Positions 8,344 through 49,767 are shown, numbered from the stretch's first letter. The stretch: DNA of 51,015 nt from an uncultured Phycisphaera sp. (GCA_964421865.1 CAYQZH010000002.1:1-51015); one strand, 5' to 3'. Notes: generated by a model not told the origin, from the letters alone. Numbers and translations are program-made.

Positions 8344-8403
8344 CGACGCGCGTCGATGCGTCTACCGAGGCCGGCGTCCCGCCGCAGCACCTCCCGACGC
8401 GCA

Positions 8404-9450: not shown

Positions 9451-9486
9451 AAAAAAGCGGCCGGCCCCGGTGTATAGGTAGGTAGA

Positions 9487-9593: not shown

Positions 9594-9651
9594 TTGTGGC
9601 GGAAGACGAATCGAAAGCTGGCGACGATCATCCTTCATTGGGAGGAGGGAC

Positions 9652-10125: not shown

Positions 10126-10288
10126 TTGCTGGCGGAGGCGACATCGGTCCGCGGGAGATGGTCTGGGCGTGAATGCTGGGAACAGCCAGAACGACGCACC
10201 GGCGCGCGGAAGGTCGGATGCCGCAGGGTAGCGCGACACGCCGGACGTACGTGCTCGCGGCACGGCGCGACGGGGTGCGGCCAAGGAC

Positions 10289-10359
10289 GTGACACACCGC
10301 GCACACGGCGGCCCAAGGAGGGGCCGCCCCGTCTGCGTGCGTCTCCCCAGCTAAGACGT
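10289..10359 (+). repeat. 71-nt leader segment, copy 1 (repeated at 11813-11884)
   Basis: The sequence gtgacacaccgcgcacacggcggcccaaggaggggcc...gtctcccc.g..aagacgt is nearly identical at both sites. Confidence 0.75.
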
Positions 10360-10513
10360 AGCGAGACATCAGACGGATGGAATCCGGGCGGGTCATGACG
10401 CCGGGTTGGCCCCAGGGCGCGCCTCGGGAGGTCGAGAACCGGGATGCGTCTCGGGGCGAGTGAGACGGCGCCTAGGAGTACTCGAAGTCGTGAGACGGTG
10501 GAGGATGAGAAGA

Positions 10514-11200
10514 ATGGCAGTGGACGCGGTACTTGAGGGAATCAGACGGGGAACACGGCGGGGCCTCATCCTGGCGCGGAAGCGTCTTGCCGCCTGGTCG
10601 GACGTCGGCGTGCAGGACGCCGACCGGATGGTCTTCGATACTCTTGACGAGATGGTCAGGGAGTTCCTCACACGGGAATCACCGCGCGGGACGCCGTGTG
10701 TTGTCTGCGGTCCGGGCGCCACGCCTCCGTCCCCGCGAGAGTCCACGATGGAACCGCTTTGCCTTGCCTGCCTTCGGCGGCTGCGGCAGGCCTGCGCATC
10801 ATGCGGCGGACGACTCTTCGCGGACTTCGACGGCGTGGGTCTCGAAGCCAGGGTGGGCGCTCCGTTGTACGGCATGTACGGGGAATGGGCATACCACGCT
10901 ACACTCTCCGAGTGGTTGCCGTCGGTCGCGCGCGTCGGCCTCGTGCCGCGGCGACAGCCCCGGGAGCGCGCCGGTGAACGGCGTGGTATCGGGCAGGCGG
11001 GCGTGTTCTTCTGTTGCGACGAGGACAACGCATTGGTGTGGAACGACGCCGTTCTCCGGTTCCCGTGGCCGGAGATGTGGGGCAGGGATCCATACGGTGA
11101 GGGGCAGAACCTCTGGACCGACCGCTGGATTCCGCCGGAGGTGCTTGAGGCCAAGTGCGGCGGGACATGGGTGCCGATCGCGGGGAGGGAGTCGAAGTAA
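10514..11200 (+). CDS. hypothetical protein with CxxC pairs (228 aa)
   Basis: I set the start at MAVDAVLEGIRRG behind ggtggagga. Motifs are CVVCG..CLACLRRLRQACASCGG and a C-terminal EWAYHATLSEWLPSVARVGLVPRRQP... The 3' part is duplicated at 11885-11971. Confidence 0.6.
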   Translation: MAVDAVLEGIRRGTRRGLILARKRLAAWSDVGVQDADRMVFDTLDEMVREFLTRESPRGTPCVVCGPGATPPSPRESTMEPLCLACLRRLRQACASCGGRLFADFDGVGLEARVGAPLYGMYGEWAYHATLSEWLPSVARVGLVPRRQPRERAGERRGIGQAGVFFCCDEDNALVWNDAVLRFPWPEMWGRDPYGEGQNLWTDRWIPPEVLEAKCGGTWVPIAGRESK

Positions 11201-28704: not shown

Positions 28705-29862
28705 TCAACGAAACCGCCGCACAGCGCGCACATAGTACTTGTTTGTGCGATAAAACGTGGTACCGTCCGCCGCATAGGCAACGTTACCGGGAAAGCTGGG
28801 GGGCGGGTCGGTAGCTGTCCAGTACACGTCCCCATTTTGCGAATACGTGCTGCTCACCTTCGTGACAGCACAGGAGGTAGCTTTTTCCAGAGACTGGAAT
28901 TCGCTGAGCTGCGGCAATCTCCAGTCACTGAACCCTCCCAAAGACAAAGAAGCGCAGTAGGCGAGAGCCTCCTGCTGAGTTCGTCTCAGTCCGTCGTCGT
29001 CCTTCTGCCACATGAGTCCCACACCGTGGTCAGTCAGGGTCCCATCTCCATTGTCAGTTAGACCGGTAGCCCTTACGGGCGCTTTGCCAGCTGCAACCTC
29101 GCCTTGCGTCTGCCGGAGCTTGTCAAGCATTTGCCGTGCGCCCTGCACGTACTTGTCGGTAAGCTTGATTCTCCCGTTGACGATCTGATTTGCGGTATCC
29201 ATCGCGGCGCTGATATCACCAACCGCCTTCGTACCCGTGGCGACGTTGAAGCGGCACGCACAGATCCAGAACTCATGGTCTTCCTTGACGGATGGTCTCG
29301 ACGCCAAGAGGCAGGTGAGCGCATGCCGGTCCCGGCCGGCTTGCATTAAGGCCATCGCAAAATCGTATAGGCGAACCCTGAGACCCTGTGCGATGTCAAC
29401 ACCTTGCTGCCTCTCGATGAAGGGCATCAGCCGAGCCATCAAGATTTCGCCGAGCTCTTTTCCAGGAAGTGACCGTGGCAGATGAAGATTGGGTTCTGTC
29501 CTCAATGTCTCCTCGTAGCGCACGAGCACTTGAGCGAGAACGGTGACTAGCTCAAACCGTCGGTTGTTACGAAAGTCTTGCTCGATCGAACCCCAGTCCA
29601 AACGCAGCGAATCGATCGGGAAAGTTTTGCACTCATCTGCTATGTCGTCCTTAGGCCTAGTTCGCAACATCTCATAGAGCTCGTTCGTTCCTTCGCTCCT
29701 GTCGAGGTAATCGAGAAGGTTGGGCGACGAAACCTTCAAAGGCTGCGCCTGTGGACGGGGTCTGGTAGGCGGGGAGGATTGGTGGCACGGGTCGGTCGTC
29801 GTGGTTCGCTTTTTGAATAGCCGATCAAGGAGTCCCATTGATATTCCCTTCCTGAGCCGCAC
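28705..29862 (-). CDS. protein with helical N-terminal region and C-terminal DUF1566 (Lcl C-terminal) domain
   Basis: The DUF1566 pattern is TLTDHGVGLMWQKDDDGLRRTQQEALAYCASLSLGGFSDWRLPQLSEFQSL. The probable true start is MGLLDRLFKK (29838). Confidence 0.8.
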   Translation of the reverse strand: MRLRKGISMGLLDRLFKKRTTTTDPCHQSSPPTRPRPQAQPLKVSSPNLLDYLDRSEGTNELYEMLRTRPKDDIADECKTFPIDSLRLDWGSIEQDFRNNRRFELVTVLAQVLVRYEETLRTEPNLHLPRSLPGKELGEILMARLMPFIERQQGVDIAQGLRVRLYDFAMALMQAGRDRHALTCLLASRPSVKEDHEFWICACRFNVATGTKAVGDISAAMDTANQIVNGRIKLTDKYVQGARQMLDKLRQTQGEVAAGKAPVRATGLTDNGDGTLTDHGVGLMWQKDDDGLRRTQQEALAYCASLSLGGFSDWRLPQLSEFQSLEKATSCAVTKVSSTYSQNGDVYWTATDPPPSFPGNVAYAADGTTFYRTNKYYVRAVRRFR

Positions 29863-30780: not shown

Positions 30781-31293
30781 TCACGTTGTATCGTCTTGTC
30801 TGTCCTGAGCACGGAGTAAGTTTCGCACGTCGTCCGGCAACCATCCAAACGTCAGACACCGCCGCGTCTCGCGTCTTAAGTTCTCGATGTCCAGCGACGA
30901 AATATCACCGAACCCAGCTTGCCGCCCCCGCAGAATCGCCATCACGTACAAGACACGAGCCACATCGCGCGGGAGACCGCCGTCCTCAACCAAAGACGCC
31001 TTGGCGAAGTCCTTGGCCAGCCTTATGGCGTCAATAGAAGGCGATGCGTTTCGGAGCAGATCGCCGAATGTTCCGCCTTGGTATCCGCCAATGATCGACG
31101 ACACTTCCTCGCGAGAACGGTCGCTGATCTCAGCCAACCGATCAAGTTCGGACGCCAGCGGCGTGGCCAACTGATGCTCGAGCATGGCTCGGAGGTCGGC
31201 AGATGACCACGGCACCGCGTCAGGCCGCGAAGGGTCCATCAGCGCCCTAAGGATGTCCTTGCTCTTGCGGCTTGCCGCTGGCGGCTTGGTCAT
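30781..31293 (-). CDS. hypothetical protein (170 aa) immediately downstream of the ECF sigma gene
   Basis: Composition is balanced (DLRAMLEHQLATPLASELDRLAEISDRSREEVSSIIGGYQGGTFGDLL...VARVLYVMAILRGRQAGFGDISSL). It has no TM helix and no HxxxCxxC anti-sigma motif. Confidence 0.6.
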   Translation of the reverse strand: MTKPPAASRKSKDILRALMDPSRPDAVPWSSADLRAMLEHQLATPLASELDRLAEISDRSREEVSSIIGGYQGGTFGDLLRNASPSIDAIRLAKDFAKASLVEDGGLPRDVARVLYVMAILRGRQAGFGDISSLDIENLRRETRRCLTFGWLPDDVRNLLRAQDRQDDTT

Positions 31294-31356: not shown

Positions 31357-32100
31357 TTATCGTCCGACGATCTCACGCAAGTCGGCGATCTCCTCGTCGA
31401 TCTGATCCTCATTGTAAACATAGCGCCCGACCGCCGCGCGTAAGTGTTTGGCAAAACATCTCTTGGCGTTCGCAAGCAGATTCATGGCCTGGCGAGGCGT
31501 CTGGATGCCAAATCGCCTAACGACCTGTCCGTAGTCGGCGGCCTCGGCACCATGAAGCATCGGATCGACAACCCTCAGGTAGAAGATCTCCCACAAGTCA
31601 CTGCGATCACGGCCCTCGCAGTCGGACTCCATCAACTCGAGGGCATCCCGAACGACCTGCTGTACCCACTCCTGCTCAAATCGATTAGTGCCGGAACGCG
31701 TTGCTAGAACAGCAAGCGTAGACTCGTCCAAACCTGACGCCATCGCCCTGGCTGCGTACTCTTGCTTTAGCTTCGTCGTCACGAAGTTGTTAAGCGCCTT
31801 GAGGACGAAATTGCGGAATTTGCCCTTGCCCCGGTCGGCGTGGTGAACGAGCTTTCGGGCCAGAATTTTGTCCGCGACGAAGTCGTGAAGGAGATCGTCC
31901 GCCAAGTCTGGTCGTAAGCGACGTGTCTCGGTCAGGAAGGCCCGCAACGCCGGTGCATAGGCGACGAGCAACTCGGCAAGTGCCAGCTGCCGGGTCATTT
32001 CATCAGATGCCGCCGCGCGTCCGACCAGCGACCAGCGGGTCTCCGGGAATCGCGATGGTTTCTTCCGGTCGTAAGGCATTCGATGCCTCTGTCGAGCCAC
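31357..32100 (-). CDS. ECF-type sigma-70 family RNA polymerase sigma factor (kinase-linked type)
   Basis: The N-terminus is FPETRWSLVGRAA. The region-2-like block is DLLHDFVADKILARKLVHHADRGKGKFRNFVLKALNNFV. The region-4-like HTH is YGQVVRRFGIQTPRQAMNLLANAKRCFAKHLR. It is divergent from a Hanks kinase. Confidence 0.75.
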   Translation of the reverse strand: MARQRHRMPYDRKKPSRFPETRWSLVGRAAASDEMTRQLALAELLVAYAPALRAFLTETRRLRPDLADDLLHDFVADKILARKLVHHADRGKGKFRNFVLKALNNFVTTKLKQEYAARAMASGLDESTLAVLATRSGTNRFEQEWVQQVVRDALELMESDCEGRDRSDLWEIFYLRVVDPMLHGAEAADYGQVVRRFGIQTPRQAMNLLANAKRCFAKHLRAAVGRYVYNEDQIDEEIADLREIVGR

Positions 32101-32618
32101 TTCGCTTCAAGTGCCTGATCCGTGCGGCAGGCGACATGTGAAGGGTCGTCCCACTTTTCGGCACCGGAAGCTTGCCTTCCCCAAGTTACCGGCTGACCAA
32201 GCGGGCCGCAATCCGAGAGGGGCAAGTTGCCCTGCCGCGTCAACGGCCATCAAAGGCAGACGAGGCGAGGAGCCGCGAACTGCGCAGCACGGCTGCGACC
32301 AGCGGGTAGTCCTTCTTGAGACGCAAGCCACACACGGCCCGAAGCACCATGCGACCGGCACGGGATCGCAGTCGGCACCGCTGGGGCAAGCTCAACCCAC
32401 GAACCCACGATCGGTGCCCCACTTGGACTTGCGGGGAAGGGAGGCAAAGTGATAATGGCGACAAAGGCATCGCCCTTGGGCACGCCGCCCCGTCCGTCCC
32501 GGGAGCGTTGCGGGTCCCCGGCGAACCATCCGGCCTAACGGACCTGCCAGGGATGGCAGGTAGATATCAAACGAGGGAACTACAGCGTGGCGGGTGAGAC
32601 CGTAGGAGTGGTCTGGCT
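32101..32618. promoter_or_regulatory. 518-nt divergent control region between the ECF sigma array (minus) and the kinase/Hsp70 array (plus)
   Basis: This is inferred from gene geometry only. I cannot pick out -35/-10 elements with confidence. The ORFs listed here are short and low complexity. Confidence 0.4.
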
Positions 32619-33779
32619 GTGCCGATTCTTTCGCCTGGGCAGGTTGTGCGCGACACCTATGAGGTCGAACGTCTCCTCGGTGAGGGGGCGTTTGCCGAGG
32701 TCTACCGCGTAAAGCATCGCTTCATGGGCCGACAGGCCATGAAGGTCTTCAAAGCGACCGGAGCGACGCTAGAGGACATCGAGCACGACATAGCAGAAGC
32801 CATTCTCCTTTCTGGCATCAAGCACCCCAACATCGTTGAAGTCTACGACGCCAACGTGCTGGAGGCAAGCAAGGCCCAGTTCGGCTATTTCACGATGACC
32901 TACATGCCTGGCGGCACGCTGGAGCGGTTCTGGCGGTCGTTCGGAACCACCCTGATGCCGGTCGAACAGGTTGTTGAGGTGATCAGGCAGGCATGCCGGG
33001 GGCTGGCCGTCGCTCACTCGTCCTCGCCCCCCATTGTCCACCGCGACATCAAACCGCAGAATCTGCTCGTCGGGTTCGCAGCCGATGGCCTACGCGTGCG
33101 TCTCAGTGACTTCGGCCTAGCCAAAGCCGTCAACCCGCTCACCTTGTTGGTCAGCGCCAAGGGCACGCTGGGCTTCAAGCCGCCGGAGTCGCTTAACAAC
33201 GTCGATTCCTGCGCCGCAGATGTCTGGGCCGTCGGTACGACCCTTTACCTGCTCCTCACCGACGAGATGCCTTTCCCGATGCTAAGCGATCGCGACGTGG
33301 AGGACGCCAACCGGTTCCTGCGGCCCATTCGTCCGCCCAGCATTTACAACATCGGCATCGATGCCGGCCTAGAGTCCATCATCTTTAGATGCCTTGCTGC
33401 CTCTGCTTCGGACAGATACGCCGATGCCAACGAGTTGCTTCGTGACCTGGAGAAGTGGACACCGGGCTACAAGCCGCCGGGAACGTCAGTCAGCCAGTCC
33501 AAACGAGGCTCGAAGACGGCGATTGCCGAGCGTTCTCCTCATGACCTCAAGGGCGAGGCGCGAAATGCGCTCCAAGAAGCCATCGGGATCGCCCACGACC
33601 CCACGAAGCTCATGTCGGCCGCGGACTTGCTGGAAGAGGCTATCAGCAAGGATCCCGCCCTTCGCGATCGGTATGAGTCGCAACTTCAACTTTGGCGCAA
33701 AGGCATCATGCACGTGTCGACGGCAGACTTCTCACGGTCCAAGTCGAGGGGGCGAAACCCGGAGGGCAAAATCCCCTAG
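32619..33779 (+). CDS. Hanks-type Ser/Thr protein kinase, soluble (386 aa)
   Basis: Kinase motifs are LGEGAFAEVYRVKH (G-loop), AMKVFK (VAIK Lys), HRDIKPQNLLV, DFGLAK, GTLGFKPPE and DVWAVGTTLY. There is no TM helix. It has a GTG start behind GGAGTGG. Confidence 0.9.
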   Translation: MPILSPGQVVRDTYEVERLLGEGAFAEVYRVKHRFMGRQAMKVFKATGATLEDIEHDIAEAILLSGIKHPNIVEVYDANVLEASKAQFGYFTMTYMPGGTLERFWRSFGTTLMPVEQVVEVIRQACRGLAVAHSSSPPIVHRDIKPQNLLVGFAADGLRVRLSDFGLAKAVNPLTLLVSAKGTLGFKPPESLNNVDSCAADVWAVGTTLYLLLTDEMPFPMLSDRDVEDANRFLRPIRPPSIYNIGIDAGLESIIFRCLAASASDRYADANELLRDLEKWTPGYKPPGTSVSQSKRGSKTAIAERSPHDLKGEARNALQEAIGIAHDPTKLMSAADLLEEAISKDPALRDRYESQLQLWRKGIMHVSTADFSRSKSRGRNPEGKIP

Positions 33780-33930
33780 CCTGCGCAACATTGCGACATG
33801 ACCGAGGTAGTAGAGATGAACGACAAGAGACATCGCCGAGTCCGGTTGACGTGGATAGGGTTCGAGCGTCGTAAGTGGGAAGCCTCTTTCATGGGAATCC
33901 CCCGGCACGACCTGCAAAGGAAGTTCTGAA

Positions 33931-36900
33931 ATGGAGTGCCCGCATTGCCATTTGGAGGCGCAGATTCGAGCTGATGGAATCTGCCAGGCTTGCGGGAGAA
34001 ACCGCTGGGAACCTACGCCGGAGTCGGGGGCGACCGCGGTCAATCCGAAGCCCAATGCGCAGCTCGGTAGAGACGGGGTAGCGGCAACCGCAATCCCAGA
34101 ATGCGAGGAACTCATCGAACTGGCAACGCCGCACATCTACCGCCGCAACCTGTTCCGTGTGCTTGGACTACCAGTAAACGCAAGCCCGAAGGATGTCCAG
34201 CAACAGCAGAATCGCCGCAAAATACAGGAGAAGCTCGGCATTGCCGCCTCCGCTCATCACGGCGGTCCTCTCGTCCTCGAACCACCACCCACTGAGGAAG
34301 ACATTCGCGCCGCGATGGAACGCCTGAATCGTCCGGTGGACAGGCTTCTTGACGAGCTCTTCTGGTTCTGGCCGACCAACGGAAGTGTCGCCGGCGATCC
34401 CGCTCTCAAAGCAGTGGAGCAGGGAAATGTCGACAAGGCCGCCAAGCTCTGGACAGAGCAGGCCGAGCTAGGCGGGCAGCGAGAGATCGCAACCCACAAC
34501 CTGGCCGTACTCGATCATCTCATCGCTCTCGACTACGAGGCCCGTCTAGCCTCGCAGAGCTTGGACACGAAGGAGCAGGAACCCCTGGCCGACCTCTGGC
34601 TCCGAGTATTCGTGCGTTGGGGGGAGGTGCTTGACGGCGAGGAGTTCTGGAGCGTCGTCAAGAACCGTGTTCGTGACCTGGACGACGCGCAGCTTACGAC
34701 CGGCTTCGTCCGCCGTGTTCGGGGTACCCTGCCCACCGCTCTCCTCCTGATTAACGCAAAGATCGCTTACAGTGCGGCGGAACGGTCCGACAGCGAGCTC
34801 GCCCGGCAACACTACCAACTGCTGCAATTGGCAGATTTCCGATGTGGCCTCGCCGACGAAGCTATCCGCGAGTCGCTCAAGCCAATCCGAAACCGGATCA
34901 AGACCGCCACGGACAATGCCAAAGGCCGATGGACCAGGACGCCGCATCACGGGAATCGCTTCGCCCGAGAATTGCACGAGCAGGCCAAAAGCATGCTCGC
35001 CATCGTGGACGCGATTCTCCCGGAAAACGACCTGACCCGTGCAGGGCTGCACGATCTAGTTGCAGAAACGATGCGCGAAGGCTTGGTTGATTTCGGGAAC
35101 AAGACGAACGATTGGCAAGAATGCGACAGAATTCTCAAGCTGGCCGAAGAACTGGCCATCGGCCAGGCCGTCAAGACGAAACTGTCTAACGATCGCGCAA
35201 TCGTTCAACAGAACGCTAAGGACGGCAACGACTGGTGCAGCCCCGGTTATTGGGACCTGCCGGAGGAGACCATCACTCAGCTTGAGGCCGCTCGCGCGAA
35301 GACCCAAGCAGGAGACTACGAAGGAGCAGGCCGACTGTTGGTCGTTCTCGACCCGAAGATTGGCAAGCCTCTACGTTGCTGTCTGGCCTTCTGCCTTAGC
35401 CACCGTGGATCACAGATAGCGGGACAGGGCTTGAATGACTTTTCGAGCGAACCCACCCCCAAAGTGCAAAGGTTTCTGGATGTCATTGGCCGCCTAGGGT
35501 CAGTGCCGCTTCCAAACCCCAACATGCAGTCCTGGCAGCTCCCGGATTGTCCATGTTGCGGCACGAAAAGTTACACAAGTTGGGTCAATGGAGAATACAA
35601 AGGACAGCGCTATTGGATGTGCAGCCAGTGTTCGGAGGAGGACAACCGAGAGCGAGAAAAAAGAAAGCGCGTGCTCCGAAAGAGCATCAGTGAATCCTTG
35701 GAGTATGTACTCCTTGCCGACGAGCTCGACCCCAATAACACCGGAATCCGCGAGAATCTTAAGTCGTTGAAGGAGATCGCGAACGATATCGGCGCGAGCA
35801 TCCCCAAGACGAAGGGACTGAAAGAGAAGCTAGGGGCCGAGACCACGAGGGGCAAACGGCATGAGTTCGAGTCGTCACCCGAAGACACCGTCTGCCACTT
35901 CTGCGGCGAACATGCTGCAGACGAGTCTTGCCGCATCACCGTGGCAATGTGCGGCGACCTCCAGCCCGCCGAGCTACTCTTCTGCAAGGGAACCGAGTAC
36001 GAGTACGGTGACGCTATCGTGCCTCGCTGCAAACGCTGCTTCGGCGCGCACCGAGAAGTAGCAGAGGCCCAGACCGCCATTGAGCAGGCCGAGTCCATTG
36101 GAAAGGAATGCGACAGGTGCAAATCCAGCCTTTTTTGGCACCGGTGCCTTTGCCGACGTTGCGACAGCAGGGTCTTCCAACTCGGACGACTTTCGAAGGG
36201 TTTCGCTTTTGCTGCCGCCATCTTTTTGCCAGCCGTCGGCCTCGCTCTTGCTACTGATTATTACGAGGTTTTGGCTTCCGTGGCCGACTTCGTCGCCGCG
36301 AACAGCGGTTTGACACTCACAGACGCCGGTTTTTGGGTGCGGGTTATCGTAGGTGGTGCAATTCCGCTGTTCATGGTCCTCTCCGTTCCGGTCGGTTTGA
36401 AGCGGAGGCAGCGATGTCTGCGGCGGGAAATGAGCGAGAAGCGGCAGGCTGAGATCCAACAACGCCGACATGTCGCGCACAACATCGCGCAAAAGAAGCT
36501 AGACGAGGCCGCGTCTTTCCTGAGGTCGGCCGGCATTAAGTCAGAGTCCGCGTACCTAGAGTTCCACCGAATCAACGAGTTATGTGGCCGCGGTTGGAGG
36601 TTTGGTCACGTGACGGAGGCTAACGGCAAGGCGGCCATTGAAGACCTAGACTACGTGAAAGGCCTTGTTTCTGGTGTCAGGCGGGCGAGCGAGGGTTCGA
36701 TTGTCGAGATTGCAGCACTGAAGACGGCAATCAGTGAGATGCGGTGTTGGGACGACAACTTGGAAACGCTGTCGAGGCGTGCGGTCCAAGCCCTGGTGCT
36801 ACGGGGCTTTTCACCCAAGGATGCCAGACGCCAACTCGAGGGAGCTGGGGTTTCGCGGCGTGCAGCGCGGTCGTTGGTTCGGGAGGCCGCGTCGGACAAT

Positions 36901-36939
36901 GCACAGTTCAGTCAAGAAGGAACTTCGCACAACCCATGA
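33931..36939 (+). CDS. 1002-aa multi-zinc-ribbon protein with a J-domain-like segment lacking HPD and two C-proximal TM helices
   Basis: The N-terminal ribbon is CPHCHLEAQIRADGICQACG. The J-like helices are IYRRNLFRVLGLPVNASPKDVQQQQNRRKIQEKLG...IRAAMERLNRPVDRLLDELFWFWP, and there is no HPD tripeptide anywhere. Further ribbons are CPCCG..CSQC, CHFCG, CKRC and CDRC..CRRC. The TM helices are FAFAAAIFLPAVGLALA and VIVGGAIPLFMVLSVPVGL. Confidence 0.8.
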   Translation: MECPHCHLEAQIRADGICQACGRNRWEPTPESGATAVNPKPNAQLGRDGVAATAIPECEELIELATPHIYRRNLFRVLGLPVNASPKDVQQQQNRRKIQEKLGIAASAHHGGPLVLEPPPTEEDIRAAMERLNRPVDRLLDELFWFWPTNGSVAGDPALKAVEQGNVDKAAKLWTEQAELGGQREIATHNLAVLDHLIALDYEARLASQSLDTKEQEPLADLWLRVFVRWGEVLDGEEFWSVVKNRVRDLDDAQLTTGFVRRVRGTLPTALLLINAKIAYSAAERSDSELARQHYQLLQLADFRCGLADEAIRESLKPIRNRIKTATDNAKGRWTRTPHHGNRFARELHEQAKSMLAIVDAILPENDLTRAGLHDLVAETMREGLVDFGNKTNDWQECDRILKLAEELAIGQAVKTKLSNDRAIVQQNAKDGNDWCSPGYWDLPEETITQLEAARAKTQAGDYEGAGRLLVVLDPKIGKPLRCCLAFCLSHRGSQIAGQGLNDFSSEPTPKVQRFLDVIGRLGSVPLPNPNMQSWQLPDCPCCGTKSYTSWVNGEYKGQRYWMCSQCSEEDNREREKRKRVLRKSISESLEYVLLADELDPNNTGIRENLKSLKEIANDIGASIPKTKGLKEKLGAETTRGKRHEFESSPEDTVCHFCGEHAADESCRITVAMCGDLQPAELLFCKGTEYEYGDAIVPRCKRCFGAHREVAEAQTAIEQAESIGKECDRCKSSLFWHRCLCRRCDSRVFQLGRLSKGFAFAAAIFLPAVGLALATDYYEVLASVADFVAANSGLTLTDAGFWVRVIVGGAIPLFMVLSVPVGLKRRQRCLRREMSEKRQAEIQQRRHVAHNIAQKKLDEAASFLRSAGIKSESAYLEFHRINELCGRGWRFGHVTEANGKAAIEDLDYVKGLVSGVRRASEGSIVEIAALKTAISEMRCWDDNLETLSRRAVQALVLRGFSPKDARRQLEGAGVSRRAARSLVREAASDNAQFSQEGTSHNP

Positions 36940-37051
36940 AATGATTGAAAGGCCGCGCACACCGGGGGTGGTCGAGCGGTAGTAACAATAACAAGCAAAA
37001 GGAAGGTAAACTTCGGACGGTGCAAGGATCGTCCGCCACGGACTCGATGGC

Positions 37052-37984
37052 ATGAATGACAAGACACACAAAAACGAGCCGCTTCTTGGCGTGAAGAGCG
37101 GCATACTTGAAGCAGTCCGACAGTGGTGCTTCCCACTGGAGTTTCGCATCGCTGCGCCAGGTATGCCCTTGGATGCGCTAACGGAAGTCGAAACAGCGAT
37201 ACGGTGCGCACCTGTTACGCAACCAGCGGGACGGCCCACCGCTCCAACTGAATCTAGCACGTCGAACGAACTCGTTGCGGACTTGGCTACCTGTCTCTGG
37301 TATCTCAAGACAAAGCACTTCAATCGCAAATGGGAGGACGACGAAACAGGCGACGACGACCCACGGGTGCGTCGATCGCTGAGTCGGCTAAACAAAGGGA
37401 TTACCGCACTAAAGGGGGCTGGCGTCGAGGTCCACGATCCCACCAACAAGCGTTATCCACAGGGGGGCGAGGGTATGATGCGGCCACTTCAGTTTCAGCC
37501 GACGGCTGGCTTGACCTTCGAGGTCGTTAGCGACACTGTCGCCCCCATCATTTACCGGGATGACCGGCTCATCCAGCGCGGTGAGGTATTTGTCGCTGTC
37601 CCGAAGGAACAGACAAGCGATGCGTCGGCGTCCACCGCCCAGGCCGCCTCACCTAGCGTCGAAGAGGTGCCCGTGACGGACGAGTCCTTGCCATCGCAGG
37701 CAGAAGCGTTGACGACTACAGCTGCCAAAGTGGCGAACTGCGGGGCCCCCAAAGGGGCAGCACCGGCGGACGACGGTAGCATCGAGTCCCTGACCTCAAA
37801 GCAAGTTGCCGGCGCAACTGACGAGGAAGTGGCCGACGAAAAGCGACTGGGGCCAGCAACCTCATGCAACGCCGCCAATCACGAAACTACGGCCGCGGAG
37901 GCTGAATTGGAGACGTATCGGGCAGGGGGCGAGCCAGACTCGAAACAAGAACCAAAGACAAACAAGGACGATGGAACGGTATAG
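37052..37984 (+). CDS. divergent GrpE-like nucleotide-exchange-factor candidate with acidic/Ala-rich tail
   Basis: The segment LNKGITALKGAGVEVHDPTNKRYPQGGEGMMRPLQFQPTAGLTFEVVSDTVAPIIYRDDRLIQRGEVFVAVPKE follows the GrpE C-terminal pattern (GVE.I...G..FDP..H.A........V..V...GY...DR.IR.A.V.V). It sits between the J-like gene and an Hsp70 gene. The CDS itself is confident, but the functional call is moderate. Confidence 0.55.
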   Translation: MNDKTHKNEPLLGVKSGILEAVRQWCFPLEFRIAAPGMPLDALTEVETAIRCAPVTQPAGRPTAPTESSTSNELVADLATCLWYLKTKHFNRKWEDDETGDDDPRVRRSLSRLNKGITALKGAGVEVHDPTNKRYPQGGEGMMRPLQFQPTAGLTFEVVSDTVAPIIYRDDRLIQRGEVFVAVPKEQTSDASASTAQAASPSVEEVPVTDESLPSQAEALTTTAAKVANCGAPKGAAPADDGSIESLTSKQVAGATDEEVADEKRLGPATSCNAANHETTAAEAELETYRAGGEPDSKQEPKTNKDDGTV

Positions 37985-38003
37985 TCGCGAAAGGGTCTCA
38001 GAT

Positions 38004-40505
38004 ATGCCACGAACGACCATTGATTTCGGTATCGACCTGGGGACGACCAACAGCACCGTCGCTGTGATCGATGGAATAGACGCGAAGGTCATCCCGAACA
38101 AGGGCGGATCGGGAATCACGCCTTCTGCCGTGTGGATCGACAAGCGCGGCAGCATCCACGTCGGTCAGGAGCCGAAGCTGCACGCTTTGGTCGATGACGC
38201 AGACAACGCCGACCTGGAGTTTAAGCTCCGCATGGGTCTCGGTGACGAGGGCAAGAAGGTATTTGCCCGCAGTAGTCGGGAGATGCTGCCCGAAGAACTG
38301 TCGGCCGAGGTGCTCAAGTCCTTGAAAACCGACGTCCGGAGCAACATGAACGAGGACCTCCGCGCAGTCGTGATCACCGTCCCAGCGGCCTTCGAGAACC
38401 CGCAGACCACCGCTACGCGCAAGGCTGCTGAACTCGCCGGTTTTACGCTCAGTCCGCTGCTTCTAGAGCCGGTCGCCGCTTCGCTGGCTTACGGCTTCCA
38501 GACCCAGAGCGAAAATGTCTACTGGATGGTGTACGACTTCGGCGGCGGCACATTCGATGCGGCGGTGATGCACATCCGCGACGGCCTGATTCAGTATGTG
38601 AAACACAATGGAGATAACTTCCTCGGTGGCAAACTAATCGATTGGGATATCGTGACCAAGGTGCTAATCCCGCCCCTTACCAAACAGTTCAACTTACCCG
38701 ACTTCAGACGCGGCAATCCGCGATGGCGGTTCGCTATCGGCAAAATGAAATACTACGCCGAACAAGCGAAGATCGAGGTATGCCGCTCGAAGGCTCCGTA
38801 CGAGATCTGGATCGAGAGGCTGTGCGAGGATGCGGACGGAAAGGAGGTCGACTTCGCCTACACGCTAACGCCAAAAGATGTGGAGCAGGTCAGCAAACCG
38901 CATATCGAAAAGTCGCTGGGCTGGTGCCGCTCGACGCTGGAGCAGGCGCGGCTGAGCGGATCGGATATGGAGCGGATTCTGATGGTTGGCGGCACGACAC
39001 TGAACCCCTGGGTTCGAGAGGCGGTCCAAGCCGAGTTGGCCAGCCGGCTCGAGTTCGGTATCGATCCGGTAACGGTCGTCGCGCGGGGGGCCGCCATCTT
39101 CGCGAGCACGCAGGCCCTGCCGCCGGACCCCTCGGCAGCGGTCCCCAAGGGAACCTGGCAAATCCAGTTCGAGCACAAGCCGGTCGGCAACGTGCCTGAC
39201 CCGGACATCGGCGGTCGTATCATGCCTCCGGATGGTCGGAGCGTTGCAGGCTTCACCATCGAACTCGTCGACACGAAGACGCAGTGGCGGTCGGGCCGGA
39301 TCACCCTTGGAGGGGATGGCGTGTTCATGACGCAGCTCCATGCGGAGAAGCAGCGGCGACACGAGTACGCTATCGAACTTTGCGACGCGAAGGGCACACA
39401 TATCCCGACCACGCCGGATCGTGTCTCGTACACCGTTGGCGTGATCCCACAGGAGAATCCACCTGCGGCAATGACCATCGCGGTAGGCTTGGCGGATGGC
39501 GGAGTGGCAATCTACCTAAAGAAAGGCACCAAGCTACCAGCCCGCAAAACGATCGATCACTACACTACCGTCGCACTCCGTGCGGGGCACGCAAAAGACG
39601 AACTGCGCATTCCCCTGCTCGAAGGTGAGCACGCTCGCGCGGAACGCAACCACGGCATCGGCGTGATGACGATCAAGGGGTCTGACATCCGGCGCGACCT
39701 GCCAGCCGGCAGCCAGATCGAGATCACCCTCGTCATGGACACGTCTCAGCAGGTTCGTCTCCAAGCCTATGTGAATTGCTTGGACGAGGACTTCGACGTC
39801 AGTTTCGATCCACAGATGAAACACAACTCGCTTGCAGACCTTTGCAAAGACGCGCACCAGCAAAAAACGCGCTTGGCAAACGCTCGTGAGAAGGCTGAGC
39901 GAACGAACGCACTGAAGGCCGAGGCTGCCCTGTCAACGATCGAAGACCAACAGTTGCTCGGGCACGTCGATTCACTTATCGAGGCTGCCGGCAACGACCC
40001 GGATGCTGTTGCCCAACTTGACCGCCGAGTCCGCGAGTTAGCATCAGCCGTCGATGAGGTAGAGGATTCCATTGAATGGCCAGATCTTCTAGTGAAAGCT
40101 GAAGAGTCTCGCAAGGAAACCGAGCGTGTAGTGGGAGAGTACGGCGAAGCCAGCGATCGAAACAGGCTCCGTTCGCTCAAGGAAGAACTCCAGCGGGCTG
40201 TCGATACAGGGGACCCTGATCTACTCCGCCGGTATATCGACGAGCTCTGGGGCCTGTACTTCCAAGTGCTTGACCGGCAGCCGGGTTTCCATGTCGGGCA
40301 GTTTAACCGGCTTGTTGAGCGGGTCCAGTCGATGCGCGACCCGGGGCAGGCAGAACAGGTCATTGCGCAAGGCCGCCGCGCGATCAACAACAACGACATC
40401 GAGGCGTTGAAGGCCGCCAATCGCCAGCTCCTCTCCCTTCTGCCTCGGGACATTCAAGAGCAGGTCAAGCATGAGAATGTCGGCGACACAATTACAAGAG
40501 GGTAA
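38004..40505 (+). CDS. non-canonical Hsp70-family ATPase (833 aa) with an inserted domain before the substrate-binding beta-domain and a ~230-aa helical C-terminal extension
   Basis: Hsp70 motifs are IDFGIDLGTTNSTVAV, VITVPAAFENPQTTATRKAAELAGF, YDFGGGTFDAAV and MVGGTTLNPWVREAV. The SBD-beta-like segment is MTIAVGLADGGVAIYLKKGTKLPARK...PLLEGEH. The start was chosen at MPRTTIDFG (ATG 38004); ATG 37971 is an alternative, and the track start at 37806 lies inside the previous gene. Confidence 0.9.
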   Translation: MPRTTIDFGIDLGTTNSTVAVIDGIDAKVIPNKGGSGITPSAVWIDKRGSIHVGQEPKLHALVDDADNADLEFKLRMGLGDEGKKVFARSSREMLPEELSAEVLKSLKTDVRSNMNEDLRAVVITVPAAFENPQTTATRKAAELAGFTLSPLLLEPVAASLAYGFQTQSENVYWMVYDFGGGTFDAAVMHIRDGLIQYVKHNGDNFLGGKLIDWDIVTKVLIPPLTKQFNLPDFRRGNPRWRFAIGKMKYYAEQAKIEVCRSKAPYEIWIERLCEDADGKEVDFAYTLTPKDVEQVSKPHIEKSLGWCRSTLEQARLSGSDMERILMVGGTTLNPWVREAVQAELASRLEFGIDPVTVVARGAAIFASTQALPPDPSAAVPKGTWQIQFEHKPVGNVPDPDIGGRIMPPDGRSVAGFTIELVDTKTQWRSGRITLGGDGVFMTQLHAEKQRRHEYAIELCDAKGTHIPTTPDRVSYTVGVIPQENPPAAMTIAVGLADGGVAIYLKKGTKLPARKTIDHYTTVALRAGHAKDELRIPLLEGEHARAERNHGIGVMTIKGSDIRRDLPAGSQIEITLVMDTSQQVRLQAYVNCLDEDFDVSFDPQMKHNSLADLCKDAHQQKTRLANAREKAERTNALKAEAALSTIEDQQLLGHVDSLIEAAGNDPDAVAQLDRRVRELASAVDEVEDSIEWPDLLVKAEESRKETERVVGEYGEASDRNRLRSLKEELQRAVDTGDPDLLRRYIDELWGLYFQVLDRQPGFHVGQFNRLVERVQSMRDPGQAEQVIAQGRRAINNNDIEALKAANRQLLSLLPRDIQEQVKHENVGDTITRG

Positions 40506-40574
40506 TGTTACGCCATGATTGCCGTGCTGCTGGGATACCAGGGCAAACAAACCAGTGCCGAAGAAACCTAGAGG

Positions 40575-41648
40575 ATGCCGGCCATGCGATTCAATTCGAG
40601 CAATACAACTGCGGATACGAGTAGTTCCATGTCTGGCGCCAACAAGGGTTCTGCCAGACTCTTTTCTGCGGCCGTCATCCTGGCGAGAAGGGGCCGATAC
40701 GTCGAAGCTACCAAGCTGCTTCAGAAGGCTCATGGTGCCGGAGAGTGTTCGGATGCTGAAGCCTTAGATTTGCAGGCCCGCATCTACGCTCAGCAAGGGC
40801 TCTACTTGCATGCCGAATCCTGCTGGAACAAGGCGAAACAACTCGATGGATCAACTCCAGCATACGATGAAGCGCTGAGCCGGCTTCGCCGAGCTCGTCA
40901 TTCGAGCGGCCGCTTTGTGCGGGTGAGCGTTATTATATCCGTACTCCTAATCCTGGGCCTTTTATTCTGGCAGGTCGCGTTCGTCAACCCAACCATTGTC
41001 GCTCGCCAGGACGCAGCCGAGAGTTCGCTTAGCGCGATTCGCGGGGAAATCGCCGCACTGCAAGACGCTTCACGGGGACGGGATCAAGCCCTCGCCACGA
41101 CCGTCACGAGCTTGGGCACTGGCCTAACCGATTTCGAGTCGCGCCTTTCCGAACGGTTGGAATTGGTGCCAACAGTCTCGCGGACCGCAGAAGACCGCAA
41201 TGCCGTGATCGCCCGTGTCGATGCGCAGATTGGCGTGCTTCAGAAGGCCCTCGAGCGCGAGGCTGGCAGTCTGGAAACCCGTCGCGCCGAGGCCGACATT
41301 GCGCAGGTCAAGAGAATCGAAACTCTCGAAGCGGCCATCGCCGACATGGGCAAGGTCTTGGCTTCTCTTGAAGAAGGACTCAGCAAGCGTGTTGAGGCAG
41401 CCGAGATCCGTCTTGCCGAACGCGTCGATGCGATGGATGACACCGTTAAGCGCGAGATGAAGTCCCTGCCCACTTCAGCCGAACTCGCGACACTCGGCGA
41501 CTCAATCTCCAAACTCCATGAGCAGCTTGCGGAGATTGCGGCTGCGGTTAAACCGCCTAAGGGTGCTTCCGATCAGAATGTTGGTGGAGCCGACGATGAC
41601 AAGAGAACGGACCAACCGTCGCCCCCGCCAGAGGGACAGCGACCATGA
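40575..41648 (+). CDS. TPR-like / single-TM / long coiled-coil protein (357 aa)
   Basis: The N-terminal TPR-like part is ARRGRYVEATKLLQKAHGAG...ARIYAQQGLYLHAESCWNKAKQLD. The TM helix is VSVIISVLLILGLLFWQVAFV. About 200 aa of heptad-like E/A/L/R-rich sequence follow, ending in a P-rich tail. Confidence 0.75.
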   Translation: MPAMRFNSSNTTADTSSSMSGANKGSARLFSAAVILARRGRYVEATKLLQKAHGAGECSDAEALDLQARIYAQQGLYLHAESCWNKAKQLDGSTPAYDEALSRLRRARHSSGRFVRVSVIISVLLILGLLFWQVAFVNPTIVARQDAAESSLSAIRGEIAALQDASRGRDQALATTVTSLGTGLTDFESRLSERLELVPTVSRTAEDRNAVIARVDAQIGVLQKALEREAGSLETRRAEADIAQVKRIETLEAAIADMGKVLASLEEGLSKRVEAAEIRLAERVDAMDDTVKREMKSLPTSAELATLGDSISKLHEQLAEIAAAVKPPKGASDQNVGGADDDKRTDQPSPPPEGQRP

Positions 41649-41682
41649 GCTGGGCGAACGCGACGTCCAGTGGGTTTGCATC

Positions 41683-43200
41683 ATGAGCATCGTCGGTTTA
41701 GATTTTGGCACTACCAAGTGTCTTGGTGCGATTTGGAAAAACGAAAAGCCTCTGATAGTCGGCACTGGCATCGACGATTCTCGTATCCCCTCATTGGTTT
41801 TGGTTCTTCCCGACGGCACGACACTAGTAGGGTCGGAGGCGCAGCATTATCGGGGTAGGTACGGCGGCGGTTGCCTTTCGATTCCGGGTTGCAAGCGGCG
41901 GATGGAAACGCGAGAGGGGCTCGCCTGGGCAAGCTGGCATGCCCAACGGCACGAAGTTGCAGCGATGGTCCTACAATACGCAAAAGGGAGGGTGGAGAAC
42001 CGCGCGGGCTCACCGATTTCGACAGCTGTGCTTACGGTACCAGGTTGTGCCACGCTCAGTTATCGCGAGGCACTCGTAAAAGCCGCTACGATCGCTGGAA
42101 TCAAGGTCGACAGGCTTCTGGGCGAAGCGGTCGCAGCAGCATTGCCCTTCATTTTCTCGCCGCGTTGCCCGGCGGAGTGTACCCTGGCGTCGGTGACCTT
42201 CGGTGGTGGCACGCTGGACATCGCGTTCATGGGGGTCGACAAGAGCATCGGCGTCGTTGAAGTTCTTGGCGTTGCAGGCGATCCCAAGCTCGGTGGCCAG
42301 GATTTTGACGACATCATCGTTGACCACATTGTTGCTTGCAACCCATCAGCGCGCGCAGGACAAGATCGGCTCAGCAACGCGCAATATGAAATCCTCCGCG
42401 AAGTCGCATCCCAGATAAAGACCGACCTCAGTTTCGCGTCCAGCGCAACGATCCGTCTGACTGGCCTCTTCACTGCGCAATCTTCATCGACGCGGCTCCA
42501 AGACCCCGAACTGACGCGCGACGCCTTCCAGAAGATGTCGCAAGGTCTTCTTGCTCGCGTTGAGCGCGCTACGGAGAAAGCCCTTGTTGACGTCGAGTGG
42601 AAGGGTGGCAGATGGCATGGAGAACGCCTCGTGCTCCTCAACGGCGGTAGCAGCAGAATGCCGGCCTTTCAGGACCTCATACGAAAGGCGTTCTATCCTT
42701 GTACTCGCATCTTTTCTGGATCGGAAACAAGTGCTGTCGATGGCGCGCTGATGTACGCACGTATTCTCGGTGGAGAGAACAAGAGCTTCATCGTGATGGA
42801 TGTCCTACCGCATCCAATGCATCTTGGCTTGGCCGGGGGTAATTCTGTAACAGTATTTCCTCGTGGGTCGCATATCCCAACAACAGAGACCGTCGCACTG
42901 TCGGCGAATGGCGACGGTATGCGCGAACTCAGGATCCCTATTTTCGAAGGAGAGGTAGAAGAAGGTGGCACGGGCAGGACCCCCTACGGCTGGATTTGCC
43001 TGACGGGAGTAGGTCAATCTGGGCGCGATACGCCGCGCATAGACTTGTCGATTCATGTGGATTGGAGGATGCGGCTTGGGGTCTGTGCGATTGACCAGCA
43101 AAGCAAAAAGGAAATAGCTGCGCGGGTAGAAAGTGCTTTCGCTTCTGCGGGGGCCAGAGACGTTGAATTCGTGTATTCTAAACATAGGATGGCGCCGTAG
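41683..43200 (+). CDS. lidless Hsp70-like ATPase (505 aa)
   Basis: Motifs are VGLDFGTTKCLGA, VLTVPGCATLSYREALVKAATIAGI, VTFGGGTLDIAFM and LLNGGSSRMPAFQDLI. The SBD-beta-like segment is VMDVLPHPMHLGLAGGNSVTVFPRGSHIPT...IPIFEGE. The protein ends right after the beta-domain, so it has no helical lid. Confidence 0.85.
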   Translation: MSIVGLDFGTTKCLGAIWKNEKPLIVGTGIDDSRIPSLVLVLPDGTTLVGSEAQHYRGRYGGGCLSIPGCKRRMETREGLAWASWHAQRHEVAAMVLQYAKGRVENRAGSPISTAVLTVPGCATLSYREALVKAATIAGIKVDRLLGEAVAAALPFIFSPRCPAECTLASVTFGGGTLDIAFMGVDKSIGVVEVLGVAGDPKLGGQDFDDIIVDHIVACNPSARAGQDRLSNAQYEILREVASQIKTDLSFASSATIRLTGLFTAQSSSTRLQDPELTRDAFQKMSQGLLARVERATEKALVDVEWKGGRWHGERLVLLNGGSSRMPAFQDLIRKAFYPCTRIFSGSETSAVDGALMYARILGGENKSFIVMDVLPHPMHLGLAGGNSVTVFPRGSHIPTTETVALSANGDGMRELRIPIFEGEVEEGGTGRTPYGWICLTGVGQSGRDTPRIDLSIHVDWRMRLGVCAIDQQSKKEIAARVESAFASAGARDVEFVYSKHRMAP

Positions 43201-43287
43201 CGGACTTTAACACGTAAGGGGTTATACGTCATGGCGTAATGTGTGCCTTGACTTATCCCCTGACGGCGGCAGCACGAAGCACTAAGT

Positions 43288-43818
43288 ATGAATGGCAAAC
43301 AGATCATTGACGTAGCTGCTGAGGTGGCCCGGCTTGTGGTTGAGTCGCGACTCCGTGACTTTGCGCTGATCGCCCAGACAGACCGCAGTGACCGCATACG
43401 AGCGGTTGCGGCAGTCATATCAAAGTTTCCTCCCGGAGGATATCTAATCGGCTGCGGCCCGTATTCTTGCGGCATTGTGCCGTTGACCGTTGACGAATTG
43501 GTCCTTGGTCGCCCGCCGTCACCTCTGGAGGGAGTTCCGGAGTCTGTCGCAGACTTCACGCTGAACGATGCAGTGTGGATGTTGCCGCGCGAAGCATCGA
43601 GAATCCATGCCAGCATCATTCGTCGTACTGTAAACGGGAATGCTAGGTACTGGGTGAGAGACGAACGCAGTCGCGCCGGAACGTACGTGAACTGCCGGCA
43701 GGTCGAAGCAGGCGAAGATGCCGCGGACATTGACAAGGCGGTAGAGTTGACAAACGGCGACATACTCTCGCTGGGTCCGTCGGGTGTCAACGCCTACGTC
43801 TTCTACGTCGCCAGCTAA
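43288..43818 (+). CDS. FHA-domain protein (176 aa)
   Basis: The FHA pattern is LVLGRPPSP...DFTLNDAVWMLPREASRIHASIIRRTVNGNARYWVRDERSRAGTYVNCRQV...ELTNGDILSLGPSGVNAYVF, matching G-R...SR.HA......Y.v.D..S..GT.VN....L..GD.i.lG. Confidence 0.85.
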   Translation: MNGKQIIDVAAEVARLVVESRLRDFALIAQTDRSDRIRAVAAVISKFPPGGYLIGCGPYSCGIVPLTVDELVLGRPPSPLEGVPESVADFTLNDAVWMLPREASRIHASIIRRTVNGNARYWVRDERSRAGTYVNCRQVEAGEDAADIDKAVELTNGDILSLGPSGVNAYVFYVAS

Positions 43819-44689: not shown

Positions 44690-45310
44690 TCAGTCTGGCA
44701 GGGCAGGTATCCCCAGACCGTGGCTGATGCCAAGCTGCTTCTGGAAACGGCACTGGAGGTCTGCAAGGAATAGAGGGCCGGGAGGCCCCCAACCGCAACC
44801 CGAAACGCCGCGTGGCGGGCCGTCGCAATCGATGCAGGGTTGGCGCCCAGCCAGCGGCTGACGACCGCGCGTTTCTGGCGATCGAGTCGCACATCCTTGG
44901 CGGAGCATCGCGCGCCTACATGTGGAAGCTGGAGGACGACTGCTCGCTCGGAGAATGCCGGCACTGGCGCGGCGAGGTCCACGGTGCCTTCCCGTCTCCG
45001 TTCTGGAGCGACCTGTCGGCCGCGCTGCGGGGAGAGACATAGGTTCGGCCTCCCACCCAGCGCGATAGCGGCGCTTTCGTTTGCCCGCCTTGTTCGCAGG
45101 CCGCCGGCGATTGCCCTGCTCCCCGCCGGGCTCGCCGACGCCGCCGAGAACGGCGTCGAGGTCCTCCTGGAGATACAGGCGGAACCCGGTGACCGGGTGG
45201 CGGCGCGCCTTGAGCTTCCCGGCGGCGTCCCACCTCCGAAGCGTGTCCTTTGACACGCCTAGGTACGATGCCGCCGCGCCGACCGTGAGGTAATCGCTCA
45301 GTTTCTTCAT
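44690..45310 (-). CDS. excisionase/MerR-type helix-turn-helix protein; only the first ~65 codons are convincing
   Basis: The N-terminus MKKLSDYLTVGAAASYLGVSKDTLRRWDAAGKLKARRHPVTGFRLYLQEDLDAVL is the classic excisionase-family HTH. The remainder (GEQGNRRRPANKAGKRKRR...) is basic low complexity and may be read-through or decay. Confidence 0.55.
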   Translation of the reverse strand: MKKLSDYLTVGAAASYLGVSKDTLRRWDAAGKLKARRHPVTGFRLYLQEDLDAVLGGVGEPGGEQGNRRRPANKAGKRKRRYRAGWEAEPMSLPAARPTGRSRTETGRHRGPRRASAGILRASSRPPASTCRRAMLRQGCATRSPETRGRQPLAGRQPCIDCDGPPRGVSGCGWGPPGPLFLADLQCRFQKQLGISHGLGIPALPD

Positions 45311-49683: not shown

Positions 49684-49767
49684 TGCGGCTGAGAGGAGTC
49701 GAACCTCCACGTCCTTTCGGACACTGGATCCTAAATCCAGCGCGTATGCCAATTCCGCCACAGCCGC
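49684..49767 (-). tRNA. tRNA-Leu, anticodon UAG (class II, long variable arm)
   Basis: The minus strand reads GCGGCTG TG GCGG AATTGGCATA CGCG C TGGAT TTTAGGA TCCAG TGTCCGAAAGGACGT GGAGG TTCGACT CCTCT CAGCCGC A. The acceptor has 7 bp, the anticodon loop is TT-TAG-GA, and the variable arm forms GTCC/GGAC. Confidence 0.9.

Follow-up and report, generated by a model that had tools for sequence, protein, structure and literature searches.

An accessory Hsp70 cassette with an HPD-less J-like protein and a constant Hanks-type kinase in a contig of an uncultured Phycisphaera sp.

The complete contig CAYQZH010000002.1 (GCA_964421865.1, positions 1-51015), taken from a public assembly of an uncultured Phycisphaera sp. 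and with its 51,015 bp referred to throughout as the window, carries a single copy of an accessory cassette that has spread horizontally and has a constant core of five genes. These core genes code for a Hanks-type Ser/Thr kinase, a membrane-anchored J-like protein that lacks the HPD motif, a GrpE-fold protein, a long Hsp70 and a protein that combines TPR repeats, a transmembrane (TM) segment and a coiled coil. The open reading frames (ORFs) delineated in a first-pass annotation, made from the sequence alone, were reproduced exactly by ORF listing, both in their coordinates and in all gaps, with those of the plus-strand array being 151, 112, 19, 69, 34 and 87 nucleotides (nt). The locus, including the sigma-like gene, where ECF stands for extracytoplasmic function, comprises the following features.

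30781..31293, minus strand: 170-aa protein (c7), neighbour of the sigma-like gene, fold without known match
31357..32100, minus strand: divergent sigma-70/ECF-like protein, 247 aa (TIGR02937, E 0.029)
32101..32618, no strand: divergent intergenic region of 518 nt, separating the sigma-like gene from the kinase gene
32619..33779, plus strand: Hanks-type Ser/Thr kinase, soluble, 386 aa, predicted active (Pkinase, PF00069, 2.5e-39)
33931..36939, plus strand: 1002-aa co-chaperone-like protein with HPD-less J-like domain, zinc ribbons and two TM segments
37052..37984, plus strand: divergent GrpE-fold protein, 310 aa (AlphaFold2 model and Foldseek)
38004..40505, plus strand: 833-aa specialised Hsp70 (HSP70, 2.1e-68), with an ATG start shared with its homologues
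40575..41648, plus strand: TPR/TM/coiled-coil protein, 357 aa, single-pass (TPR_2 and coiled-coil-type matches)
41683..43200, plus strand: 505-aa lidless Hsp70 paralogue (HSP70, 1e-56)
43288..43818, plus strand: FHA protein, 176 aa (FHA, 3.2e-8)

Conservation of the cassette as a unit was assessed in relatives found by a pattern scan, covering a single genome for each species, which returned 138 genome matches. From these, 79 loci were fetched with their flanks and surveyed by tblastn with the window proteins, followed by hidden Markov models of the recovered families on all ORFs; presence counts refer to the 51 loci whose flanks extend to at least 1.5 kb upstream and 9 kb downstream. The 79 loci span more than ten phyla and come from Planctomycetota, Verrucomicrobiota, Chloroflexota, Acidobacteriota, Bacteroidota, Nitrospirota, Desulfobacterota, Alpha- and Gammaproteobacteria, Actinomycetota, Zixibacteria and others. 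The GrpE-like gene is present in 50 of the 51 well-flanked loci, the long Hsp70, with both its N- and C-terminal halves, in 49 and the kinase in 43. All four of J-like, GrpE-like, long Hsp70 and kinase genes occur together in 42/51 and are accompanied by the TPR/TM/coiled-coil gene in 38/51, the latter gene lying downstream of the long Hsp70 in 41/51. Gene order (kinase, J-like, GrpE-like, Hsp70, TPR protein) is near-universal and is permuted in actinomycete loci. Identities to the window proteins co-vary among loci (Spearman 0.74-0.83), with the kinase being the best-conserved component at a median identity of 54% versus 32-39% for the others. Its identity amounts to 73-88% in Phycisphaerae, Pirellulaceae, Desulfomonilaceae, Solibacteraceae and Zixibacteria, and identity of this order across phyla fits horizontal transfer of the whole unit. 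The family of the 1002-aa protein is large: when 1.84 billion representative proteins were searched with its profile, 1,230 clusters were obtained at E<=1e-30, setting its size at 50% identity to at least 1,230 clusters. The 62 homologues of this protein in a clustered protein database are all unannotated, and all cassette family members met here are annotated as 'hypothetical'. Of the partners whose co-occurrence the first-pass annotation had put up for checking, kinase and GrpE-like genes recur across the survey, the second Hsp70 is absent from related loci and the FHA gene is found only occasionally.

Two readings would deny the cassette its status as an accessory unit, namely, that the genes are juxtaposed by chance, or that they represent a housekeeping dnaK-grpE operon situated beside a kinase. 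The organism's own dnaK, dnaJ and grpE were not located in the single 51-kb contig that makes up the data, which leaves some room for the second of these. Synteny in 42-50 of the 51 loci across phyla, co-divergence of the components and the gene fusions described below speak against both, as do the 249 bits that the 833-aa Hsp70 scores against NCBIfam DnaK, for which the cut-off is 822, the lack of Pfam GrpE and DnaJ matches and the missing HPD. Because of the synteny survey, chance juxtaposition and housekeeping operon are both excluded, at a residual probability that we consider very slight, the housekeeping operon being rejected on its sub-threshold DnaK score as well. The genes are therefore neither neighbours by chance nor the housekeeping dnaK-dnaJ-grpE set, as had been proposed at the outset.

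The 1002-aa protein had been described as a multi-zinc-ribbon, two-TM protein with a J-like segment without HPD, and on closer analysis it answers to this description. It comprises an N-terminal zinc ribbon, a J-like domain at approximately aa 70-145 (nt 34138-34365) and an all-alpha domain up to approximately aa 450, followed by three further zinc ribbons, two TM segments and a cytoplasmic tail. Eight CxxC motifs and TM-like segments at 754-777 and 799-824 are present, and Pfam detects an FdhE-type zinc ribbon. No window cassette protein gives a Pfam DnaJ match. A profile of 28 N-terminal segments searched against the PDB returned seven matches, all of them J-domains aligned over DnaJ residues 5-62, at E 0.25-0.98, and hhalign comparison of the J-like segment with J-domains gave a probability of 95% at E 3.6e-8. 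The AlphaFold2 model of aa 52-450 (predicted local distance difference test score, pLDDT, 90.6) starts with a J-like four-helix arrangement, with helices at 23-27, 35-50, 71-81 and 84-92, in which a loop of some 20 residues takes the place of the HPD. Foldseek searches with this 399-aa model of J-like segment and helical domain yielded weak TPR/solenoid matches (E >=0.03) and a top list without J-domains, and for the helical domain behind the J-like segment there was no significant PDB fold match. The HPD motif is present in none of the eight cassette-region proteins and in none of 73 relatives of the J-like protein (0/73), which at the corresponding position show x-[L/F/Y]-G and then the loop of about 20 residues. 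In this family the head is constant and the C-terminal half highly variable. Homologues P0232 and P0269, for instance, carry long HEAT-repeat regions where the window protein has its zinc-ribbon/TM half, and homologue P0012 has an Hsp70 nucleotide-binding domain (NBD, aa 53-409) fused N-terminally to the J-like protein.

The GrpE-like assignment is borne out by fold, sequence profiles alone having given none. The window protein has no Pfam (PF01025) or NCBIfam match, no Pfam domain, GrpE included, is given for any of the 98 homologues listed, and the family profile reaches a GrpE structure in the PDB (4ani) at E 5.8 only. The AlphaFold2 model, built from 44 homologues (pLDDT 80, core above 90), consists of a core at approximately aa 67-184 and an acidic disordered tail. 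The core has helices at 67-89 and 104-122 and strands within 125-184, that is, paired long helices and a compact C-terminal beta domain, and Foldseek comparison of the model with the PDB put 12 GrpE structures at the top (E 5e-5 to 6e-3, probability 1.0), followed by a match at E ~0.9. Judged from this model, the protein is a divergent GrpE-fold protein and a putative nucleotide exchange factor.

The long, 833-aa Hsp70 matches PF00012 at 2.1e-68, with the main match (aa 8-368) covering the NBD only. Sequence inspection and alignment to DnaK reveal that the NBD motifs DLGTTNS, FGGGTFD, EP.AA and GGTT are intact. The NBD (aa 8-367) is followed by a beta-rich insert at approximately 375-495 that replaces the interdomain linker, a putative beta substrate-binding-like segment at approximately 499-590 and a long helical tail, with aa 499-629 aligning weakly to DnaK 374-500 (domain score 3.4 bits). 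In DnaK, residues R167, N170 and T173 together with the interdomain linker make the contact with the J-domain. The equivalents of these three residues are P, L or Q, and V, respectively, in essentially all 56 long Hsp70s, and the linker VLLLDVTP is absent in 56/56. With the HPD lost on one partner, and the R167/N170/T173 equivalents and the linker lost on the other, both sides of the canonical J-Hsp70 interface appear to have changed together. Every textbook Hsp70 cycle that we know of depends on the J-domain HPD contacting a fixed face of Hsp70, and this paired loss provides a natural test of whether an Hsp70 can be made to work by way of another interface. At their C-termini the long Hsp70s share a conserved motif, NNND...LK...RQL..LLP, followed by a short G-x-[S/T]-x-[I/V] tail (window 40386-40505). 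C-terminal docking peptides of Hsp70s have their model in EEVD-TPR pairs, and by analogy the conserved motif might serve as the docking peptide for the adjoining 357-aa protein, which has its TPR at the N-terminus, a TM segment at 110-143 and a coiled coil at the C-terminus.

The second Hsp70 of the window, of 505 aa, is of a different kind. Its match to PF00012 (1e-56) stops at profile position 499 of 599, and from this we conclude that it consists of an NBD and a beta substrate-binding domain and has no lid; against NCBIfam DnaK it scores 203 bits over aa 2-484. It retains the R167 equivalent and a linker of canonical type, FIVMDVLP. Near-identical copies aside, its closest relatives share no more than 31% identity with it, and none of the 79 loci holds an orthologue. 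Although initially counted as part of the module, on sequence comparison this protein is a lineage-specific orphan accessory and a local add-on. A few other loci have second Hsp70s that are not orthologous to it, with NBD-only versions in L010 and L020.

Across 55 cassette kinases, the motifs required for catalysis (G-loop, catalytic Lys, HRDxKxxN and DFG) show conservation of 95% or more. No TM segment is found in the kinase, the gene for which usually lies immediately upstream of the J-like gene. On the other side of the intergenic region, the sigma-like protein has no Pfam match and its TIGR02937 match remains below the cut-off of 42.9 bits. A profile of 15 relatives found as its best PDB match the ECF sigma factor SigE (2q1z), at E 0.059 and over sigma-2 only, and Sigma70_r2 is present in four of these 15. 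The sigma-like gene adjoins the kinase gene in 14/51 well-flanked loci and in 16/79 overall. The link that had been drawn between sigma factor and cassette thus is real in a subfamily of about 15 loci, whereas the ECF-type assignment is weak (E 0.03-0.06). Overlooked in the earlier analysis was the 170-aa protein, which adjoins the sigma-like gene in 13-15 related loci and for which we found no match in Pfam or among PDB sequences. In several loci the sigma and 170-aa genes are co-oriented with the cassette, with which they form a single array of seven genes. In locus L004 (5499-7112), the kinase carries the C-terminal half of the 170-aa protein at its N-terminus, the two making up one ORF of 537 aa, and because of this fusion we consider the two to be linked. 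The FHA protein matches PF00498 (3.2e-8, aa 89-163), with LGR, SRIH and GTYVN present. A stand-alone FHA gene ends the cassette in five loci, all of them sigma-bearing, with orthologues at the cassette 3' end in L001, L009, L013 and L037. Inclusion of FHA in the module is therefore justified to the extent that it recurs (five stand-alone and four FHA-winged helix-turn-helix (wHTH) loci), as an occasional accessory and not as part of the core.

Related loci vary considerably in what surrounds the core. In 21/51 loci the kinase gene has a transcription factor gene for a neighbour, which codes for the sigma-like protein in 14, a second sigma type in three and an FHA-wHTH regulator in four. The FHA-wHTH gene (four loci) and the different sigma-70-type gene (four loci) are each situated just upstream of the kinase. 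Downstream of the cassette, genes for Clp_N proteins or for full ClpB/ClpA-type double AAA+ ATPases are found in 20/51 loci (examples at L032:15690-18158 and L006:17452-17958). The stand-alone Clp_N proteins measure 160-240 aa. The window copy has no gene of either kind. The sigma-side array of the window codes for TPR, Lcl_C, PEGA/PD40 and other proteins. Its Lcl_C (C-type-lectin-like) protein is encoded at 28705-29862 on the minus strand, and L010:12809-15184 codes for an FGE-sulfatase plus Lcl_C protein between the J-like and sigma genes; the domain type that the two loci share points tentatively to outputs or targets of one kind.

These neighbours bring into view a dedicated membrane-proximal remodelling or quality-control machine, in which the specialised Hsp70 triad, in many cases joined by a Clp_N or ClpB-like protein, would fold, assemble or extract membrane or secreted proteins of one particular class and the kinase would only tune the chaperone. 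Two membrane-anchored components and the PEGA/PD40, Lcl_C and TPR genes alongside the window copy would suit such a machine, but no gene for a possible client is retained alongside the cassette. The recurrent Clp_N and ClpB/ClpA-type genes likewise suit it, and the window copy does without a Clp partner. Variable C-terminal modules on a constant J-like head are reminiscent of the client-specifying design of J-proteins. However, the kinase almost matches the chaperone parts in constancy and surpasses them in sequence conservation, which argues that it is central and not a modulator. On balance we deem this machine improbable as the main role of the cassette.

Five loci have FGE-sulfatase proteins and four have reverse transcriptases. 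Between the J-like and GrpE-like genes of L021 lies a diversity-generating retroelement (7981-10856), the parts of which are as follows.

L021:7981-8946: FGE-sulfatase ORF
L021:8800-8936: variable repeat
L021:9124-9477: small ORF
L021:9482-9618: template repeat
L021:9783-10856: reverse transcriptase

Variable and template repeats, both of 137 nt, show 16 differences, of which 15 fall on template adenines. At the junction of the J-like and FGE-sulfatase genes of the same locus (7744-8097) there are two perfect 127-nt direct repeats, 227 nt apart, at which the J-like gene is split into two ORFs; these repeats could be a true duplication or an assembly artefact.

A retroelement with adenine-specific differences inside a cassette speaks for a further reading, in which the cassette is a conflict (anti-phage or anti-invader) system. 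Here the J-like variable module and the Hsp70 would detect foreign or aberrant proteins, and the kinase would act as effector by phosphorylating host or invader proteins, arresting growth or infection as Stk2, PD-T4-6 and the MADS kinase do. The best PADLOC matches of the kinase are indeed mad6 (1.7e-54) and PD-T4-6 (7.6e-49), but both cover the kinase domain only and are generic: against the NCBIfam model NF047741 the kinase scores 139 bits where the cut-off is 460, again over the kinase domain only, and PADLOC found no match for the other cassette proteins or for ten island neighbours tested. Variability of the J-like C-terminal half (zinc ribbon/TM, HEAT repeats, adjacent FGE-sulfatase domains) is in line with a sensor of this kind, yet a toxin-type effector domain is absent. 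Horizontal transfer, as indicated by the 73-88% identity of kinases from different phyla, and residence within a low-G+C segment are also what this reading would predict, although plasmid, phage and IMG/VR collections contained no relative of the cassette. Literature precedent exists in that accessory HSP70-GrpE-DnaJ themes recur in predicted conflict systems (PMC7159879) and that a host J-protein is able to mediate phage sensing (PMC12169576). The linked sigma and wHTH regulators, on the other hand, point to gene regulation and not to abortive infection, and we rate a conflict function, the main rival to the reading favoured below, as rather unlikely.

The reading that we favour, at somewhat less than even odds, is that of a chaperone-gated kinase switch. 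The J-like and TPR proteins would hold the dedicated Hsp70 at the inner membrane face, the GrpE-like protein would recycle it, and the chaperone cycle would gate the adjacent kinase by holding the kinase or a docking partner as client. Alternatively, gating could consist in release of the kinase once the J-like variable module or the Hsp70 is bound by a ligand or misfolded protein. The freed kinase would then write phospho-Thr marks. In the sigma-bearing subfamily, the FHA protein would read these marks and the ECF-like sigma factor would be switched on, probably via the 170-aa partner; in other subfamilies, the FHA-wHTH regulator or the different sigma factor would stand in for the ECF-like one. 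TM segments in two components, the 1002-aa and 357-aa proteins, support membrane tethering, and the two fusions, of Hsp70 NBD with J-like protein (P0012) and of 170-aa protein with kinase (L004), support functional linkage. ECF sigma factors that are activated by Ser/Thr kinases and have no anti-sigma partners are established (PMC7826278, PMC13147305). A more detailed version holds that Hsp70 and J-like protein couple via an interface that does not involve HPD and evolved in concert with the disappearance of R167 and the linker, and that the kinase is kept off until the variable, sometimes retroelement-diversified, module or the Hsp70 is engaged, upon which the sigma factor or FHA-wHTH regulator is activated. 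This version we put forward as doubtful.

Several points weigh against the kinase switch. The steps of the mechanism are read from genes, and control might run from chaperone to kinase or from kinase to chaperone. Since 30/51 loci have no recognisable transcription factor nearby, transcription is not a universal output. Where the sigma-like gene does occur its assignment is weak, as detailed above, and no shared promoter motif was found by eye upstream of 15 sigma genes. The sigma-side array, which had been proposed to be a linked set of 'envelope' genes, is not conserved with the cassette in related loci beyond the 170-aa gene. Finally, the HPD-less J-like domain may possibly not stimulate ATPase activity at all, and the frequent Clp_N and ClpB-like neighbours are no less in keeping with protein remodelling or disaggregation than with signalling.

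With respect to its surroundings, the cassette lies in a segment at approximately 17-44.5 kb with a G+C content of 0.55-0.61, as compared to 0.65-0.72 in the flanks. The lower-G+C island proposed earlier is thereby confirmed in composition, but no integrase family was matched by Pfam among the window ORFs scanned, for which reason 'island' is a label of composition alone. A MerR/HTH_17 (excisionase-like) gene (44690-45310, minus strand) sits exactly on the right boundary of the low-G+C segment, and about 5 kb past this boundary, beside chorismate synthase, lies a tRNA-Leu gene (49684-49767, minus strand). A second, smaller dip in G+C (0.60-0.64) at 2000-5200 contains a 765-aa PDZ-domain ORF (2880-5177, minus strand), and the high-G+C part features a 520-aa ORF (6781-8343, plus strand) with a PD-(D/E)XK nuclease domain and an RNase_H_2-type domain. 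Consensus scans for promoters and terminators did not exceed chance level.

The constant pairing with an active kinase, together with the frequent sigma, FHA, ClpB-like or retroelement neighbours, suggests that proteostasis machinery and phospho-signalling are directly wired to each other in bacteria. In the full-text literature, with most subscription journals outside its coverage, we found no description of a link of this kind in bacteria and no prior description of a kinase-linked, HPD-less Hsp70 cassette, in agreement with the initial view that no system of this exact composition has been described. If true, the gated switch would be a prokaryotic counterpart of the control that BiP/ERdj4 exert on IRE1 and PERK, and the cassette would hold the first natural Hsp70-J pair that functions without HPD. 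Naming the parts of the cassette would moreover improve annotation for thousands of genes.

Like the canonical DnaK-DnaJ-GrpE system, the cassette co-encodes an Hsp70 that has kept its ATPase motifs, a factor with GrpE fold and a J-like partner. Unlike it, the cassette lacks the HPD, with the loop of about 20 residues in its stead, as well as the R167/N170/T173 equivalents and the hydrophobic linker; its Hsp70 has a beta-rich insert and a long helical tail, its GrpE is beyond Pfam detection, its J-like protein is anchored in the membrane, the unit includes a kinase and the distribution is patchy and horizontal. A non-housekeeping Hsp70 with membrane-tethered J-type partners and a reported link to sigma-factor activity is known from E. 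coli in HscC with DjlB/DjlC, where DjlC has a functional HPD J-domain and HscC is not known to use GrpE. The cassette shares with this system the pairing of a specialised Hsp70 with a dedicated membrane-tethered J-type partner, whereas kinase, TPR/coiled-coil partner and long Hsp70 tail are not known from the E. coli system. The logic that we propose, with an Hsp70 and a J-type partner holding a signalling protein inactive until clients compete, would by analogy be that of DnaK/sigma-32 and of BiP-ERdj4 with IRE1/PERK, the kinase and sensor parts of which are not homologous to those of the cassette.

Among arrangements already described, the cassette comes closest to the HSP70-GrpE-DnaJ/TPR theme of the DO-GTPase/GAP1-N2 systems (Kaur, Burroughs, Iyer, Aravind, eLife 2020; PMC7159879). 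These too combine an accessory HSP70 and GrpE, sometimes with an NBD-only second HSP70, with a DnaJ/TPR partner and membrane association, and kinases and FGE-sulfatase/retroelement domains feature in the wider family of systems (PMC7159879). The constant partners of our cassette, a Hanks kinase and an HPD-less J-like family, are not described there. No GTPase family was matched by Pfam in the window cassette proteins and no extra recurring gene family that might take the DO-GTPase or GAP1 role emerged in the 79 loci, GAP1 and FNIII-repeat proteins not having been searched for; with no GTPase family matched, assignment of the cassette to the DO-GTPase systems was rejected. With the ECF43-type pairs PknT/EcfP and PknS/EcfK (PMC7826278, PMC13147305, PMC8999054) the cassette has in common an ECF-like sigma gene beside a Hanks kinase and no recognisable anti-sigma factor. 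In contrast to these, its kinase is soluble and not transmembrane, its sigma factor is highly divergent and carried by about 30% of cassettes, and a 170-aa partner and a whole Hsp70 machine belong to the unit. Taken together, these comparisons suggest that the cassette belongs among the accessory Hsp70 systems, to which it adds the paired loss of HPD and docking site and the constant kinase.

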